NCBI GenBank assembly: GCA_903952435.1
Contig: CAJBFN010000009.1
Location: 92 to 64,091, forward strand
Reading direction: 5' to 3'
Origin: an uncultured bacterium
Lineage (GTDB): Bacteria > Patescibacteriota > Saccharimonadia > Saccharimonadales > Saccharimonadaceae
Length of the DNA: 64,000 nt
In this document: positions 22,533-26,352 of the stretch, in pieces
Position numbering within the stretch: the first letter of the stretch is position 1
Layout of the letters: each line of letters opens with the position of its first letter
Translations under genes and position numbers: made by a program
Notes under the pieces: model-generated
What the model saw: only the letters and a program-made list of their open reading frames with translations
The model's database searches: none
What the model was told of the DNA's origin: nothing

Positions 22533-22659
22533 TCCCTTTTCTATAATTTTTTTTAAAACACTTTACATCTATCCTTGCAAAATAGAATATAACTGTTAAA
22601 AGTTATAGCAGTAAATTGCCAATAAGTCTAATAATTAACATCGTAACAATGTAATATTA

Positions 22660-22689
22660 TTGACAACAGAGTATGTTATTTGCTATACT
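22660..22689 (+). promoter_or_regulatory. sigma70-type promoter for rplJL
   Basis: TTGACA-18 nt-TATACT. Confidence 0.6.
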
Positions 22690-22695
22690 CATCCC

Positions 22696-22874
22696 AGACA
22701 TCACCAAAGACAGTAGCCGTAGAAATACTTAATTTGCTACCTAGGATCATGTAAAACATACATTTTTCGATATAGTCTTTGGCAGTGCGAGGTCCAAAGA
22801 CTTTTTCTTTTGTCCTTGCAACCGTCTAGTACGCTTAACAATTTGGTCGAATAATAACCACAGAAAGGATTTTT
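22696..22874 (+). promoter_or_regulatory. rplJ (L10) leader with terminator/antiterminator arrangement
   Basis: Hairpin AGTCTTTGG...CCAAAGACT plus T-run (22774-22811). An upstream CCAAAGAC copy (22704-22711) can compete for the 5' arm. Confidence 0.55.
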
Positions 22875-23402
22875 ATGGCAATATCACGCGATAAAAAGAA
22901 CACTTTGGTTACAGAATTAGCTGAATTATTTGCAAACGCCAAAGGAACCGCAGGCGCAGCCTACGCAGGCCTTAGCGTTGCTAATCTACAAGAACTACGC
23001 GCTATAGCTCGTGCAAACGACGTTACAATCAAAGTCGCTAAAAATCGGCTTGTACGTGTTGCACTTGCTAGTAACGATAAATTTAAAGCTGCCGATACCA
23101 GTTTACTAACAGGACAATTAGTCTATGCTTTTTCTAGCACTGACGAAGTTGCTCCATCTCAAGTATTAGCTAAATTCGCTAAAAGCCACCCAGAATTAAA
23201 ACTGACGGTTGGTTTTGACGATTCAGGTAAAACACTTGATACCGCAACTGTTATCGCACTCGCCTCACTACCAACCAAGGATCAACTCCGCGGCCAACTA
23301 GTCAGCGTCCTAGCAGCCCCACTTTCCAGATTCTTGACTGTCGCCAACGGCGCACAGCGAGGATTTGCGCAAGTATTATCTCAGCGCGCTAAGTCACTTT
23401 AA
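22875..23402 (+). CDS. rplJ: 50S ribosomal protein L10
   Basis: Sequence pattern and synteny with rplL. Confidence 0.95.
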   Translation: MAISRDKKNTLVTELAELFANAKGTAGAAYAGLSVANLQELRAIARANDVTIKVAKNRLVRVALASNDKFKAADTSLLTGQLVYAFSSTDEVAPSQVLAKFAKSHPELKLTVGFDDSGKTLDTATVIALASLPTKDQLRGQLVSVLAAPLSRFLTVANGAQRGFAQVLSQRAKSL

Positions 23403-23449
23403 TACTAATTTTGTAATCACTAATTAATAAATAATAGGAGAAAATAATC

Positions 23450-23851
23450 ATGGCTGACACAGAAATCAAGCTATCTGCCACTCAAGGCAAAATCGTTGAC
23501 GAGCTCAACAAATTAAGCGCTTTGGAATTAAGCCAAATCGTAAAACACCTAGAAAACGAGTGGGGCGTAAGCGCTGCTGCTCCTGCTGCAACTGTTGCTG
23601 TTGCTGCTTCTAGTGAAGCTGCGCCTGCTGAAGACGCAAAATCAGAATTCACAATCAAACTAGCTGATGCTGGTGCTCAAAAAGTTGCTGTTATCAAAGC
23701 TATCAAAGAAATCACAGGCCTAGGCTTGGGTGAATCAAAAGCTATCGTTGATAACGCACCTTCAGTTGTAAAAGAAAAAGCCAATAAAGAAGAAGCTGAA
23801 GCTGCAAAGAAAATGCTTGAAGAAGCTGGCGCAACCGTAGAATTAGCTTAG
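23450..23851 (+). CDS. rplL: 50S ribosomal protein L7/L12
   Basis: Ala-rich hinge; C-terminal KVAVIKAIKEITGLGLGESKAIVD. Confidence 0.95.
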   Translation: MADTEIKLSATQGKIVDELNKLSALELSQIVKHLENEWGVSAAAPAATVAVAASSEAAPAEDAKSEFTIKLADAGAQKVAVIKAIKEITGLGLGESKAIVDNAPSVVKEKANKEEAEAAKKMLEEAGATVELA

Positions 23852-23898
23852 TTTTAATAATTCAACAACCAAATTCGACCATTTTGCAAAAACCTAAA

Positions 23899-23927
23899 AT
23901 AACCGCCTACAAAAGGGCGGTTATTTT
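23899..23927 (+). terminator. intrinsic terminator after rplL
   Basis: ATAACCGCC-8 nt-GGCGGTTAT plus T-run. Confidence 0.8.
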
Positions 23928-23988
23928 AGTTAAATAAAATATACAACGTTTTCAGCTTTATATCATAAATATTTGTGGAAAAGTGCCA

Positions 23989-24017
23989 TTGACATACCTA
24001 AATTTTTATCCTATGAT
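23989..24017 (+). promoter_or_regulatory. sigma70-type promoter, cassette 1
   Basis: TTGACA-17 nt-TATGAT. Confidence 0.6.
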
Positions 24018-24063
24018 TATCAAATCCACCGATTTTTAAATTTATTTCATATCTGGCGGAAGG

Positions 24064-24099
24064 ACTATTTAAAAATCAGATTATTACAGTGCATATCTT
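24064..24099 (+). repeat. conserved leader block, copy 1 (ACTATTTAAAAATCAGATTATTACAGTGCATATCTT)
   Basis: Near-identical block at 24855-24892, at the same distance from a promoter. Confidence 0.7.
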
Positions 24100-24218
24100 G
24101 GCAACCCATATCTAGATACTAACGAAAGTAGCACGCTAACTAATTTATAGATAAATTACTTGACGCGCTACTTTCGAAAAAGCGAGAGTAAGTATTTATT
24201 AGAAGGAGTGGCAAAAAT

Positions 24219-24548
24219 ATGTCCAATTCTAACAATAACCCTAGCGAAACAAATCTTGAGATTCTAAGCGTCGAACTCGAAATTAAGATCACAGGAAAGA
24301 CCTATCTAACAAAGCAGGACGTCGGTCCTATGGTCAAGGCGTTAATGACAGCCTACAACCATAAAATAAGCAATAATGTTAAGCCTGATAGGGCAAGAGC
24401 AGAGGTTCTTCTGGCTTGCGAGAAGGAAGCAAAAGAGCTTAATGATACAAGAAAGAGAGCCGTAAGGGGAGGTAGAATATTTATTACTACTGCCTTTATC
24501 ACAGTAACAATCTTGGCTGTTACTGGCTTTGCTATTGGCACAATCTAA
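24219..24548 (+). CDS. hypothetical tail-anchored membrane protein
   Basis: 109-aa ORF; AAGGAGTGG SD; C-terminal TM. Confidence 0.55.
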   Translation: MSNSNNNPSETNLEILSVELEIKITGKTYLTKQDVGPMVKALMTAYNHKISNNVKPDRARAEVLLACEKEAKELNDTRKRAVRGGRIFITTAFITVTILAVTGFAIGTI

Positions 24549-24781
24549 GATATTAAGTTGAATTGCGAGAAAGTTGATCTCCCGTACATCCAGTACGGTT
24601 GAGTAAACTTTCTCGCATCAATTTCACACCAAGATACGCACTTTGTAATAACTTGATTTTGGCAGCCATACCTCGCATTAATCACTTACCCAGACACCCA
24701 TATCCCGCAATGTACGATTAAATCTTTCAATGTAAGCATTATAAATTTTAGATTAAATTTGCTAATTGCCATTATGAATTA

Positions 24782-24810
24782 TTGACATTAAGGTGATAAT
24801 GTGCTATTAT
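24782..24810 (+). promoter_or_regulatory. sigma70-type promoter, cassette 2
   Basis: TTGACA-17 nt-TATTAT. Confidence 0.6.
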
Positions 24811-24854
24811 TACAATATAAGCTATCTGACAAAGCTAAGTAGGATCGCTTACGA

Positions 24855-24892
24855 ACTATTTTTAAAAATCAAATTATTACAGTGTATATCTT
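24855..24892 (+). repeat. conserved leader block, copy 2
   Basis: ACTATTTTTAAAAATCAAATTATTACAGTGTATATCTT; see 24064-24099. Confidence 0.7.
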
Positions 24893-25010
24893 CCTATTTT
24901 TTTATGCCCAAAATCAGAAAACAGCATAATAGCTAACCATTACAAAATGTTTATCTATTATGCTGTTTTCTGCAAATGAAAGCAGACTAAAAAAGGAGTG
25001 GTGATAAATA

Positions 25011-25334
25011 ATGAGCAAAAATACAGCCAAAGATGATCAACCTATAGCATGCGCATTAGTAGATTTATCAAACGATTACCCTTCCATATGCAGCCAAAAA
25101 ATAAAATCATACGTGACAACTAAGTATGATGAGCTTGTTGAAGCCGGACACCCGCAAGATGATGCCTGCAAAATGGCAATAAAATCATGGCGCAGATATG
25201 CCAGAGAAAAAGAACGCAAGCAAAGGCTTGCCTCAAAGCTCCTAAGGACTACATTAATATTGGCATCTTTTGTCGTAATAGGATGGGGTTTTGTGTTCGT
25301 AGCAACTAAGCTATACATAATAGCTATAAGCTGA
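25011..25334 (+). CDS. hypothetical tail-anchored membrane protein
   Basis: 107-aa ORF; AAGGAGTGG SD; C-terminal TM. Confidence 0.55.
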   Translation: MSKNTAKDDQPIACALVDLSNDYPSICSQKIKSYVTTKYDELVEAGHPQDDACKMAIKSWRRYAREKERKQRLASKLLRTTLILASFVVIGWGFVFVATKLYIIAIS

Positions 25335-25516
25335 TAATCAACCAGAGAGAACCAGTTCCTGCACAACTTGCAGTTGAACTGGTTCTCTCGCAGCAACCAC
25401 GACAAAGATATACACATTGCAATAAATTGATTTTAATAGTTGACAATATCACAATTCGTTGATATATATAAGGTAATATCACTACAAAAATAGACAAAAG
25501 GAAATTGCGAGTTACC

Positions 25517-26035
25517 ATGTCTGAGTTACCAGAAAAACAAGTAAAAAGATTACACAGCCTAATTCAAGAAGCTGAAACCAACTTGGCTGCAGCTAAAGAG
25601 TTATTAATTAGCATAATCGGCGATAATGGATCAGTTATCACACCAAAATCAAACACTATGGACGAGGCCCGCGGCAAGGTTATTGAAGGTGTGTTTGACG
25701 GTCAAAAAATGGCCGGACCTGACGGCAAAGAATACCCAGTACCAGCTAATTACGCTAGCAAATCAAAGCTTGTTGAGGGCGACATCTTGAAGCTAACAAT
25801 TACTGACGACGGCAGTTTCATCTATAAACAAATCCAACCAGCCGAACGAAAACAAATTATTGGCACACTGGCTCAACATGATGGCGCTTATTATGTTGAA
25901 GTTAATGGCCGCGAATACCGAATTTTACTAGCCAGCGTAACATATTTCCATATAGCAATTGGCGAACAAGTAACAATTATTGTTCCAGCCGACAACCCAG
26001 ATGCTACTTGGGCAGCTGTCGAAGCCGCCCTTTAA
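25517..26035 (+). CDS. hypothetical protein
   Basis: ATG at 25517 after AAAGGAAA (the ORF-track start at 25505 is TTG); promoter TTGACA-17-TATATA upstream; terminator downstream. Confidence 0.6.
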   Translation: MSELPEKQVKRLHSLIQEAETNLAAAKELLISIIGDNGSVITPKSNTMDEARGKVIEGVFDGQKMAGPDGKEYPVPANYASKSKLVEGDILKLTITDDGSFIYKQIQPAERKQIIGTLAQHDGAYYVEVNGREYRILLASVTYFHIAIGEQVTIIVPADNPDATWAAVEAAL

Positions 26036-26050
26036 ACAGATACAATCATA

Positions 26051-26077
26051 AAAAGTCCACAGATCGTGGACTTTTTT
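26051..26077 (+). terminator. intrinsic terminator
   Basis: AAAAGTCCAC-AGATC-GTGGACTTTT plus T-run. Confidence 0.8.
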
Positions 26078-26352
26078 GTTGCAAAAATAAACAAAAGCGC
26101 TATACTAAGAATTAGTTCAGAGGTGAAAACAAAAACAAATTTAAAATAAAACCCTCCACTGCTAAAGCTTTCTACTTCGCCAAGGCTTCGTAGAACTTAG
26201 TTGGAGGGCAAGGGGAGGTAGAAATATGGCAAAGCTTTATATTAGCTACGAGTCAGACAGTGTCTGTAAAATTAATGTGGTTACAAAAAAATCACAACAG
26301 TCAGCAACCGTAAATTAAAGTATACTAAGTATTGCAGTTATGGGGGTTAGTC

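Follow-up and report, generated by a model that had tools for sequence, protein, structure and literature searches.

In a stretch of 64,000 nucleotides (nt) from an uncultured bacterium of the Saccharimonadaceae (GenBank assembly GCA_903952435.1, contig CAJBFN010000009.1, positions 92 to 64,091; hereafter the window), the ribosomal protein genes rplJ and rplL are followed by two tandem units, each having its own promoter, a structured leader, a gene for a small membrane-anchored protein (u1 and u2) and a strong 3' hairpin. The question raised by this locus is what such a common frame is for, given that the two proteins it holds, of 109 and 107 amino acids (aa), show as little similarity (BLASTP E = 4.3) as had been stated in an initial annotation of the window. 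That annotation listed six features of the shared layout, all of which are confirmed in the sequence, and offered two answers, namely a riboswitch-like or protein-binding leader controlling small membrane proteins, or a toxin-like membrane-peptide module with control at the RNA level. The main feature shared by the two units, which is the long-range pairing of two arms lying at their ends, was overlooked. Based on this pairing, we propose that each unit is an end-pairing, probably processed, mRNA cassette, and we regard this as the probable, though not the certain, explanation of the locus.

Downstream of each promoter the two leaders share a near-identical block, as noticed before, which amounts to 32 nt at 94% identity (24068-24099 vs 24861-24892) and of which the pattern occurs 2 times in the window against 0 expected from 100 shuffles. 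After each 3' hairpin there is another conserved block (24628-24660 vs 25402-25434; 33 nt, 82%), and in each unit this 3' block is the inverted complement of the 5' block (repeats D3, I3, I9 and I13), so that each unit would be bracketed by a long-range helix of ~30 base pairs (bp). The full predicted transcripts fold closed via these arms in both the minimum-free-energy (MFE) and the centroid structures (z -7.7 and -9.1, with 20 shuffles each). Throughout the family described below, the predicted helix has a length of 26-35 bp, the 3' arm always has 2-4 extra bases, which form a bulge, at a fixed place relative to the 5' arm, and the bulge-free arm is always on the promoter side. Note also that the arms sit about 100-130 nt upstream of the Shine-Dalgarno (SD) sequence and do not include it.

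Complementarity between the 5' untranslated region (UTR) and its 3' counterpart within one predicted transcription unit is found in 31 cassettes, giving 772 matched arm positions. The mismatches are 34 of the G.U type, in the sense RNA, vs 9 of the A.C type, which would be G.U only on the antisense strand. Column 18 of the arms has no intermediates, being U-A in 14 cassettes and C-G in 17; column 27 is G-C in 16, A-U in 5 and U-A in 9; in columns 11, 14 and 15 the combinations A-U, G-C and G.U are seen and A.C never. Altogether, compensatory change is seen in columns 8, 11, 14, 15, 18, 27, 28, 30 and 31. Moreover, the mean pairing energy of cognate arms is -38.7 kcal/mol vs -30.4 kcal/mol for non-cognate arms, with 0 of 10000 permutations being as good, and the non-conserved inner extension, taken by itself, also pairs better with its cognate partner (p = 0.0024).

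The leader hairpin provides independent evidence at the RNA level, being an RNA element that is conserved and covaries. When ten members, taken from several genera, are aligned to a single hairpin of 22 pairs, 91.3% of the cells are paired, whereas shuffles give 76.1% and sliding the partner gives 27-52%; 15 of the 22 pairs are compensated, a number reached in 0 of 500 shuffles, and G.U pairs are frequent on the sense strand. The stems of the two leader hairpins in the window, which were previously taken to be unrelated in sequence, are covarying versions of this one hairpin family. The hairpins themselves are as described earlier and the motif GCTAAC is in both of them, but its place is the upper stem and the bulges rather than the loop; similarly, the 3' hairpins do lack a T-tail, but their common end is 7 nt (TCTCGCA), not 8. 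The z scores of the two leader hairpins, given in the table, are against 200 shuffles. The two promoters and the identical SD context AAGGAGTGG, which is 7-9 nt from the ATG in both units, stand as first read. With the leader hairpin and the arms covarying, with coding sequences that cannot be aligned and with homologues far beyond a local duplication, the argument of the initial annotation for selection on the RNA is borne out.

The search for homologues that had been suggested was made with an nhmmer profile of the arms in the own genome and with arm patterns in related genomes, and it gives a family across the genome and the order. In the 686-kb genome the arm profile finds exactly 10 strong arms, forming 5 cassettes: the two after rplL, a tandem pair (C6a and C6b) on contig C6 and one on contig C1, the pair on C6 lying shortly downstream of the 3' end of rpoC, to which it is convergent. 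A weak match at C5:9182-9203, inside a coding region, was dropped as chance. With at most 2 mismatches allowed, 18 of 201 family genomes, from 11 of 95 genera, carry the arm motif (reversed control 0); for the order, a degenerate motif allowing at most 1 mismatch was matched in 20 of 401 genomes, which belong to ten families or more (reversed control 2); since both patterns are stringent, these counts are surely too low. An inverted partner arm lies 360-3180 nt downstream in 16 of the 18 uncut family loci (20 loci outside the own genome), and for the other two (L031 and L033) no partner arm is found within 7 kb. The order-level matches gave 17 loci: at 10 of them the partner is convincing, 3 are truncated at a contig end and 4 are unconvincing. 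Left out of the counts are L030, L032, L056, L061 and L062, which run into a contig end, L031 and L033, and L065-L068, which are one-mismatch matches lacking a convincing partner. An upstream promoter in the sense orientation, TTGAC[A/T/C]-17-T[A/G]NNNT, is present in 34 of 38 cassettes, at a distance of 52-62 nt from the arm in the own family. From these matches, the cassettes are a family and not a local duplication, and the complementarity of the arms, their covariation, their fixed place relative to promoter and gene and their order-wide spread are evident in the genomes compared. In the searched literature on Saccharibacteria and Patescibacteria, to which subscription journals did not belong, no description of such cassettes was found.

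What the arms frame is highly diverse. The proteins encoded range from 72 to 690 aa, and some cassettes frame two- or three-gene operons. A single family of envelope proteins, having an N-terminal membrane helix, a domain ending in CGNP and a proline-rich tail, is present in 23 of 31 cassettes, and the C1 cassette of the own genome holds a member of it. This family (alignment A3, 16 sequences) has no match in Pfam and no sequence match in the PDB; its AlphaFold model is poor (predicted local distance difference test score, pLDDT, 59.7), and in the fold search a match was obtained for the N-terminal helix only. The small upstream cargo genes are singletons. The proteins u1 and u2 each have one C-terminal hydrophobic segment, with ~80 N-terminal residues before the anchor; together with the proteins of C6a, C6b and C1a, they give nothing above the cut-off in Pfam or NCBIfam. 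Searched against 200 family genomes each, u1 and u2 have marginal matches only (best E 1.5e-3 for u1 and 5.7e-4 for u2), with no arms near the best match of u2, and in the ESM Atlas they have a sub-threshold structural likeness to clusters partly with a HAAS domain, with no family named. The genes u1 and u2 look like this hypervariable small-gene type standing alone in a minimal frame. It is also noted that the G+C content of the cassette interior is 52-66% in the relatives and 35-44% in the cassettes of the own genome (genome 38%), where the frame is thus present around cargo that is not rich in G+C.

Based on these features, the proposed mechanism is as follows. Each unit would be an expression cassette complete in itself, consisting of a sigma-70-type consensus promoter, a structured leader, a membrane-protein gene, a strong 3' hairpin and the two flanking arms of ~30 nt. 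In the transcript the arms would pair into the helix of 26-35 bp, with the conserved bulge in the 3' strand, closing the message into a loop, and this helix would define and protect the ends of the mRNA. In the first version, the helix would serve as a leader-trailer processing stem that is cut by RNase III, as in the surroundings of rRNA; the cutting would excise the unit from read-through RNA, and the paired ends would then keep out RNase J and 3' exonucleases. In the other version, with no cleavage, the helix would shield nearby RNase Y sites, as in hbs. Because there is almost no terminator behind the 3' arms and C6b is promoterless, the processing stem is the most likely version. By a simple hairpin-plus-T-run test no terminator is present behind 18 of 20 3' arms, often with the next gene coming directly afterwards. 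Downstream of the twin cassettes, a terminator-like hairpin with a T-run comes first at 26055-26077, behind the next gene, as read by eye from the sequence, the promoter and terminator scan not listing it. On contig C6 no promoter lies between C6a and C6b, the 5' arm of the latter starting 12 nt past the 3' arm of the former, so that two arm-framed units would lie in one transcript, like 16S and 23S. Both a predicted flanking helix of at least about 20 bp, as in a leader-trailer stem, and a gene for RNase III (G000:C11:8270-8656, 129.6 bits) are found, as are genes for RNase J (500.9 bits) and RNase Y (571.3 bits); in the genome, which is 97.9% complete, no RNase E/G was found. This is decay machinery of the Bacillus type. 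That the helix forms in vivo, that it is cut and that it affects expression are what we infer.

The sequences flanking 16S and 23S rRNA form long leader-trailer stems that are cut by RNase III. The cassettes are like them in the long flank helix, in the possibility of several units per transcript (C6a-C6b) and in the presence of an RNase III gene, and unlike them in that the enclosed RNA is a protein-coding message with its own promoter and the cutting is a predicted step. The icaR study of Staphylococcus aureus reportedly has the 3' UTR pairing with the Shine-Dalgarno region and blocking translation, unlike the cassettes, in which the SD sequence lies outside the arms. Base pairing between 5' and 3' UTRs within one mRNA is described for icaR, with RNase III involved (PMC3868564), and for the single gene hbs of Bacillus subtilis, where a 14-bp helix modulates the attack by RNase Y and RNase J1 (PMC5737220). 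The likeness to hbs is in the pairing of the UTRs in one mRNA and in the set of RNase Y, J and III with no RNase E/G found; the differences are the much longer, near-invariant helix with its conserved bulge, the many unrelated genes and the order-wide spread, the helix here being deduced from sequence.

Several points weigh against the proposed mechanism. The excess of G.U is driven by a few recurrent columns, and when distinct column-and-type events are counted in the first 20 cassettes there are 10 G.U vs 9 A.C, which does not discriminate; since the cassettes are related, binomial p-values also overstate the significance. The own arms of the window are the weakest in the family (-30.8 and -22.4 kcal/mol) and hold 3 of the 9 A.C mismatches, which could mean relaxed selection. 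The 10 leader hairpins were chosen by a motif and fold-energy filter that favours hairpins. The near-invariance of the arm sequence across genera exceeds what pairing needs, and a sequence-specific partner or spread by recombination is needed to account for it. A search for RNA runs containing the stretch 22600-26100 gave none, so that the arm helix is a predicted structure. The cassettes also act as DNA insertions and deletions, leaving room for a role of the arms at the DNA level.

This last point is best considered at the rplL site, where the 1.45-kb segment 23984-25436, containing both cassettes, is an insertion. A contig of 2437 nt from an independent freshwater run (X8), ~95% alike, goes from 23983 to 25437 with 18 other letters between. 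In the four same-genus genomes (4/4) the site is empty, and a gene for a 172-aa protein (84-88% identity) is within about 90-290 nt of rplL. The initial annotation was right that rpoBC is not next to rplL, but this is not special to the locus, the same gene following rplL in all four; rpoC is on a contig other than that of rplJL, with its own cassette pair behind it. The nearest named relative (L077, with a 172-aa protein 98% identical) has an empty site with a gap of 229 nt. Among 63 species with both genes in one locus (loci L077-L156), the gap between rplL and the 172-aa gene is 191-353 nt in 46, and in 0 of those 46 is there an arm-profile match in the gap. These comparisons show that the twin cassettes are a recent insertion in the lineage, and therefore the whole module from promoter to 3' arm is also a unit of gene gain and loss. 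The insertion starts 5 nt 5' of the -35 box of cassette 1 and stops 2-3 nt past the second cassette's 3' arm; the spacer in which it sits is variable and lies between a conserved motif with GGAAAA at its end and the promoter of the 172-aa gene. In the other 17 of the 63 species the gap holds 490-2980 nt of other DNA, with no arm-profile match and no long inverted repeat save one 13-nt pair; the site is variable in general. In run X7, one contig can be followed through rplL, the promoter and the 5' arm as far as 24097, beyond which it differs, and another enters at 25417 within the 3' arm; therefore a relative seems to hold other content between similar arms. Parts of cassette 1 with no contig cover in runs X3, X5, X7 and X8 were left out of the interpretation.

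Further observations concern turnover at such sites. The ~105-nt spacer between rplL and the 172-aa gene in L050 (G056) contains the arm core TCATTACA, which may be the scar of a lost cassette, or chance. Within the window, the decayed copy at 24672-24700 may be what is left of a previous cassette end, as a scar of earlier turnover. Arm-framed cassettes with small multi-pass membrane proteins and convergent to rpoC are present both in the own genome (G000:C6:9819-10972, minus strand) and in the same-genus L040 (G187), and these two cases make the 3' end of rpoC look like a site where cassettes land repeatedly.

From the insertion of the twin cassettes, the other sequence between the arms in X7, the conservation of the arm sequence far beyond pairing needs and the presence of one serine and one tyrosine recombinase in the genome, it could be argued that the arms act on DNA, as recombination handles or terminal repeats for insertion, deletion and swapping, the pairing in RNA being a by-product. 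The left edge of the insertion is, however, 84-88 nt outside the 5' arm, with the promoter included, and no target duplication is seen, which together argue against a transposon bounded by the arms; the empty site has 18 unrelated letters. Moreover, no cassette contains or adjoins a transposase, both recombinases lie away from the cassettes, and the genome has no more than 5 cassettes, which all differ in content. The covariation of the arms within cassettes, the excess of G.U on the sense strand and the bulge-free arm being always promoter-side also speak against it. We thus consider this explanation unlikely, although it is the strongest of the rivals. For the same reasons (the edge beyond the arm, no duplication and 5 differing cassettes), a transposon or miniature inverted-repeat transposable element with terminal inverted repeats was rejected.

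The initial annotation's first proposal, a riboswitch-like or protein-binding leader controlling small membrane proteins, has in its favour the conserved covarying hairpin and the conserved block, and the SD-like GGAGG ahead of the arm in relatives. The conserved block, however, is one half of a helix with the 3' UTR and forms no local pocket, and no terminator, antiterminator or SD-sequestering alternative is tied to it. In C6b and L019, the arms are kept with short leaders in which the hairpin is missing. The Rfam scan that had been suggested gave no match in Rfam 15 for the leader, at E up to 5 in the window and up to 1 in 7 related loci, where only the L10 leader and tRNAs were matched. 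A leader of this kind is therefore, in our estimate, improbable.

The second proposal was the toxin-like peptide module, and its closest counterpart would be a type I toxin-antitoxin system, in which a fold-back of the 5' and 3' ends keeps the mRNA of a toxic membrane peptide inert. Pairing of the 5' and 3' ends is a known feature of hok-type mRNAs, and the cassettes are like hok/sok with its fbi element in that the 5' end of the message pairs with its 3' end and the product is a membrane protein. Moreover, u1 and u2 are small membrane-anchored orphans, and a weak promoter-like site on the minus strand (24765-24738) faces the 3' end of cassette 1. Yet u1 and u2, with their ~80-residue N-terminal parts, are not short hydrophobic peptides, and the same frame holds the whole range of cargo given above, including the envelope-protein family and the operons. 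Unlike in hok/sok, no antisense RNA partner is found and no antisense RNA gene is conserved, and promoter-like sites are not enriched (14 vs 10.3 +/- 2.5 expected). Taken together, a toxin module is very improbable.

Inverted repeats of ~30 bp flanking a gene, with the promoter outside, could also form an invertible DNA switch, in which a recombinase flips the gene and turns it off. It would then be expected that some genes be found in the off orientation; 34 of 38 cassettes have the promoter in the ON orientation and 0 of 38 are flipped (in consensus assemblies and contigs, where flipped forms, if rare, would go unseen). The cassettes have no recombinase gene next to them, and the arms are asymmetric, with the bulge in the 3' arm only, and covary like an RNA helix. 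This switch is the least credible of the four rivals.

In being separate one-gene units that can be inserted and stand in tandem, with imperfect inverted repeats that carry extra-helical bases, the cassettes resemble the attC cassettes of integrons, and as units bringing their own promoter they resemble phage morons. Integron cassettes are mostly promoterless, unlike the 34 of 38 here; there is no adjacent integrase or attI and no GTTRRRY-type core, the pairing is across the gene and not local, and the single tyrosine recombinase is on another contig, so that an integron array was rejected. None of the systems compared brings together arms of near-invariant sequence, a bulge that is conserved, an own promoter, unrelated cargo and a spread across the clade.

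The features of the twin cassettes are collected in Table 1. Upstream of them, rplJ (22875-23402) and rplL (23450-23851) are followed by a terminator hairpin of bidirectional appearance (23894-23929), and rplJ is preceded by a full-length L10 leader (RF00557, 57 bits, 22686-22816) with an 11/12 promoter at 22660-22689. The 172-aa gene downstream is at 81-98% identity in 80 named Saccharibacteria records, with 548 relatives confirmed, and TM7i (CP075337.1) is among its relatives; its protein belongs to no family, with only sub-cut-off MazE/AbrB-like and RuvA_N-like matches in Pfam and NCBIfam, and its place directly behind rplJL suggests a housekeeping role.

Table 1. Features of the twin cassettes and their downstream context, in window coordinates
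Feature	Position	Strand	Remark
Whole twin-cassette insertion	23984..25436	+	absent from close relatives; X8 contig joins 23983 to 25437
Cassette 1 promoter, TTGACA-17-TATGAT	23989..24017	+	11/12 consensus
Cassette 1 5' arm	24072..24101	+	pairs with 24629-24660; in MFE and centroid folds of the full transcript
Cassette 1 leader hairpin	24123..24176	+	-21.3 kcal/mol, z -6.8; member of the covarying hairpin family
Cassette 1 Shine-Dalgarno context AAGGAGTGG	24203..24211	+	read from sequence
Open reading frame u1, 109 aa, predicted C-terminal membrane anchor, orphan	24219..24548	+	
Cassette 1 3' two-tier hairpin, no T-tail	24555..24624	+	-33.4 kcal/mol, z -9.1
Cassette 1 3' arm	24629..24660	+	2 extra bases vs 5' arm
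Decayed second copy of 24612-24640 (3' hairpin end and arm start)	24672..24700	+	repeat D4, 29 nt, 72%
Cassette 2 promoter, TTGACA-17-TATTAT, TG ahead of the second hexamer	24782..24810	+	11/12 consensus
Cassette 2 5' arm	24865..24892	+	pairs with 25405-25434
Cassette 2 leader hairpin	24915..24972	+	-28.3 kcal/mol, z -9.75; covarying family
Cassette 2 Shine-Dalgarno context AAGGAGTGG	24993..25001	+	read from sequence
Open reading frame u2, 107 aa, predicted C-terminal membrane anchor, orphan	25011..25334	+	
Cassette 2 3' two-tier hairpin, no T-tail	25345..25389	+	-30.3 kcal/mol, z -7.5
Cassette 2 3' arm	25405..25434	+	2 extra bases vs 5' arm
Context: promoter 25440-25468, 172-aa gene 25517-26035, T-run hairpin 26055-26077	25440..26077	+	

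Two short motifs near the cassettes are also noted. The motif GCTTGTG(C/T)TT is present ~30 nt 5' of the -35 box in L001, L003, L005, L006, L008, L010-L013, L016 and L023; in these relatives it is accompanied by a TG-extended -10 box, and it is not evident before the cassettes of the window. It could be the site of a dedicated regulator. The hexamer TGCGAG occurs near ribosome-binding sites at 25506-25511, in the leader of the 172-aa gene, at 24565-24570, at the foot of the u1 3' hairpin, and at 24182-24187 (GCGAG at 24183-24187), after the u1 leader hairpin. In L003, L010, L029, L034-L036, L039 and L041, eight relatives in all, it is in a small conserved hairpin ahead of the gene next to the cassette, just after the 3' arm.

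Returning to the end-pairing mRNA cassette, a bolder extension of it is possible, which we put forward tentatively and with less than even confidence. It is that Saccharibacteria mature a class of protein messages in the way of rRNA, with a near-invariant, sequence-specific helix from which a nuclease, RNase III or a dedicated one, would excise a long-lived, end-paired mRNA that is independent of its context, the arms serving also as footholds for recombination in the exchange of surface-protein genes. If this is true, a cassette could be dropped anywhere in the tiny genome, even behind rplL or rpoC.

Finally, we note what the finding would mean. Pairing of mRNA ends is known from a handful of single bacterial genes, whereas here it is a conserved, portable design that serves numerous membrane- and surface-protein genes, unrelated to each other, throughout an order. 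Should the helix be a device for processing and stabilising, it would represent a new and general principle for how reduced genomes express their genes, and it would provide a ready-made insulator for synthetic constructs. In addition, the recent gain of two units at an otherwise conserved site shows a route by which these ultra-small epibionts acquire fast-evolving envelope genes.

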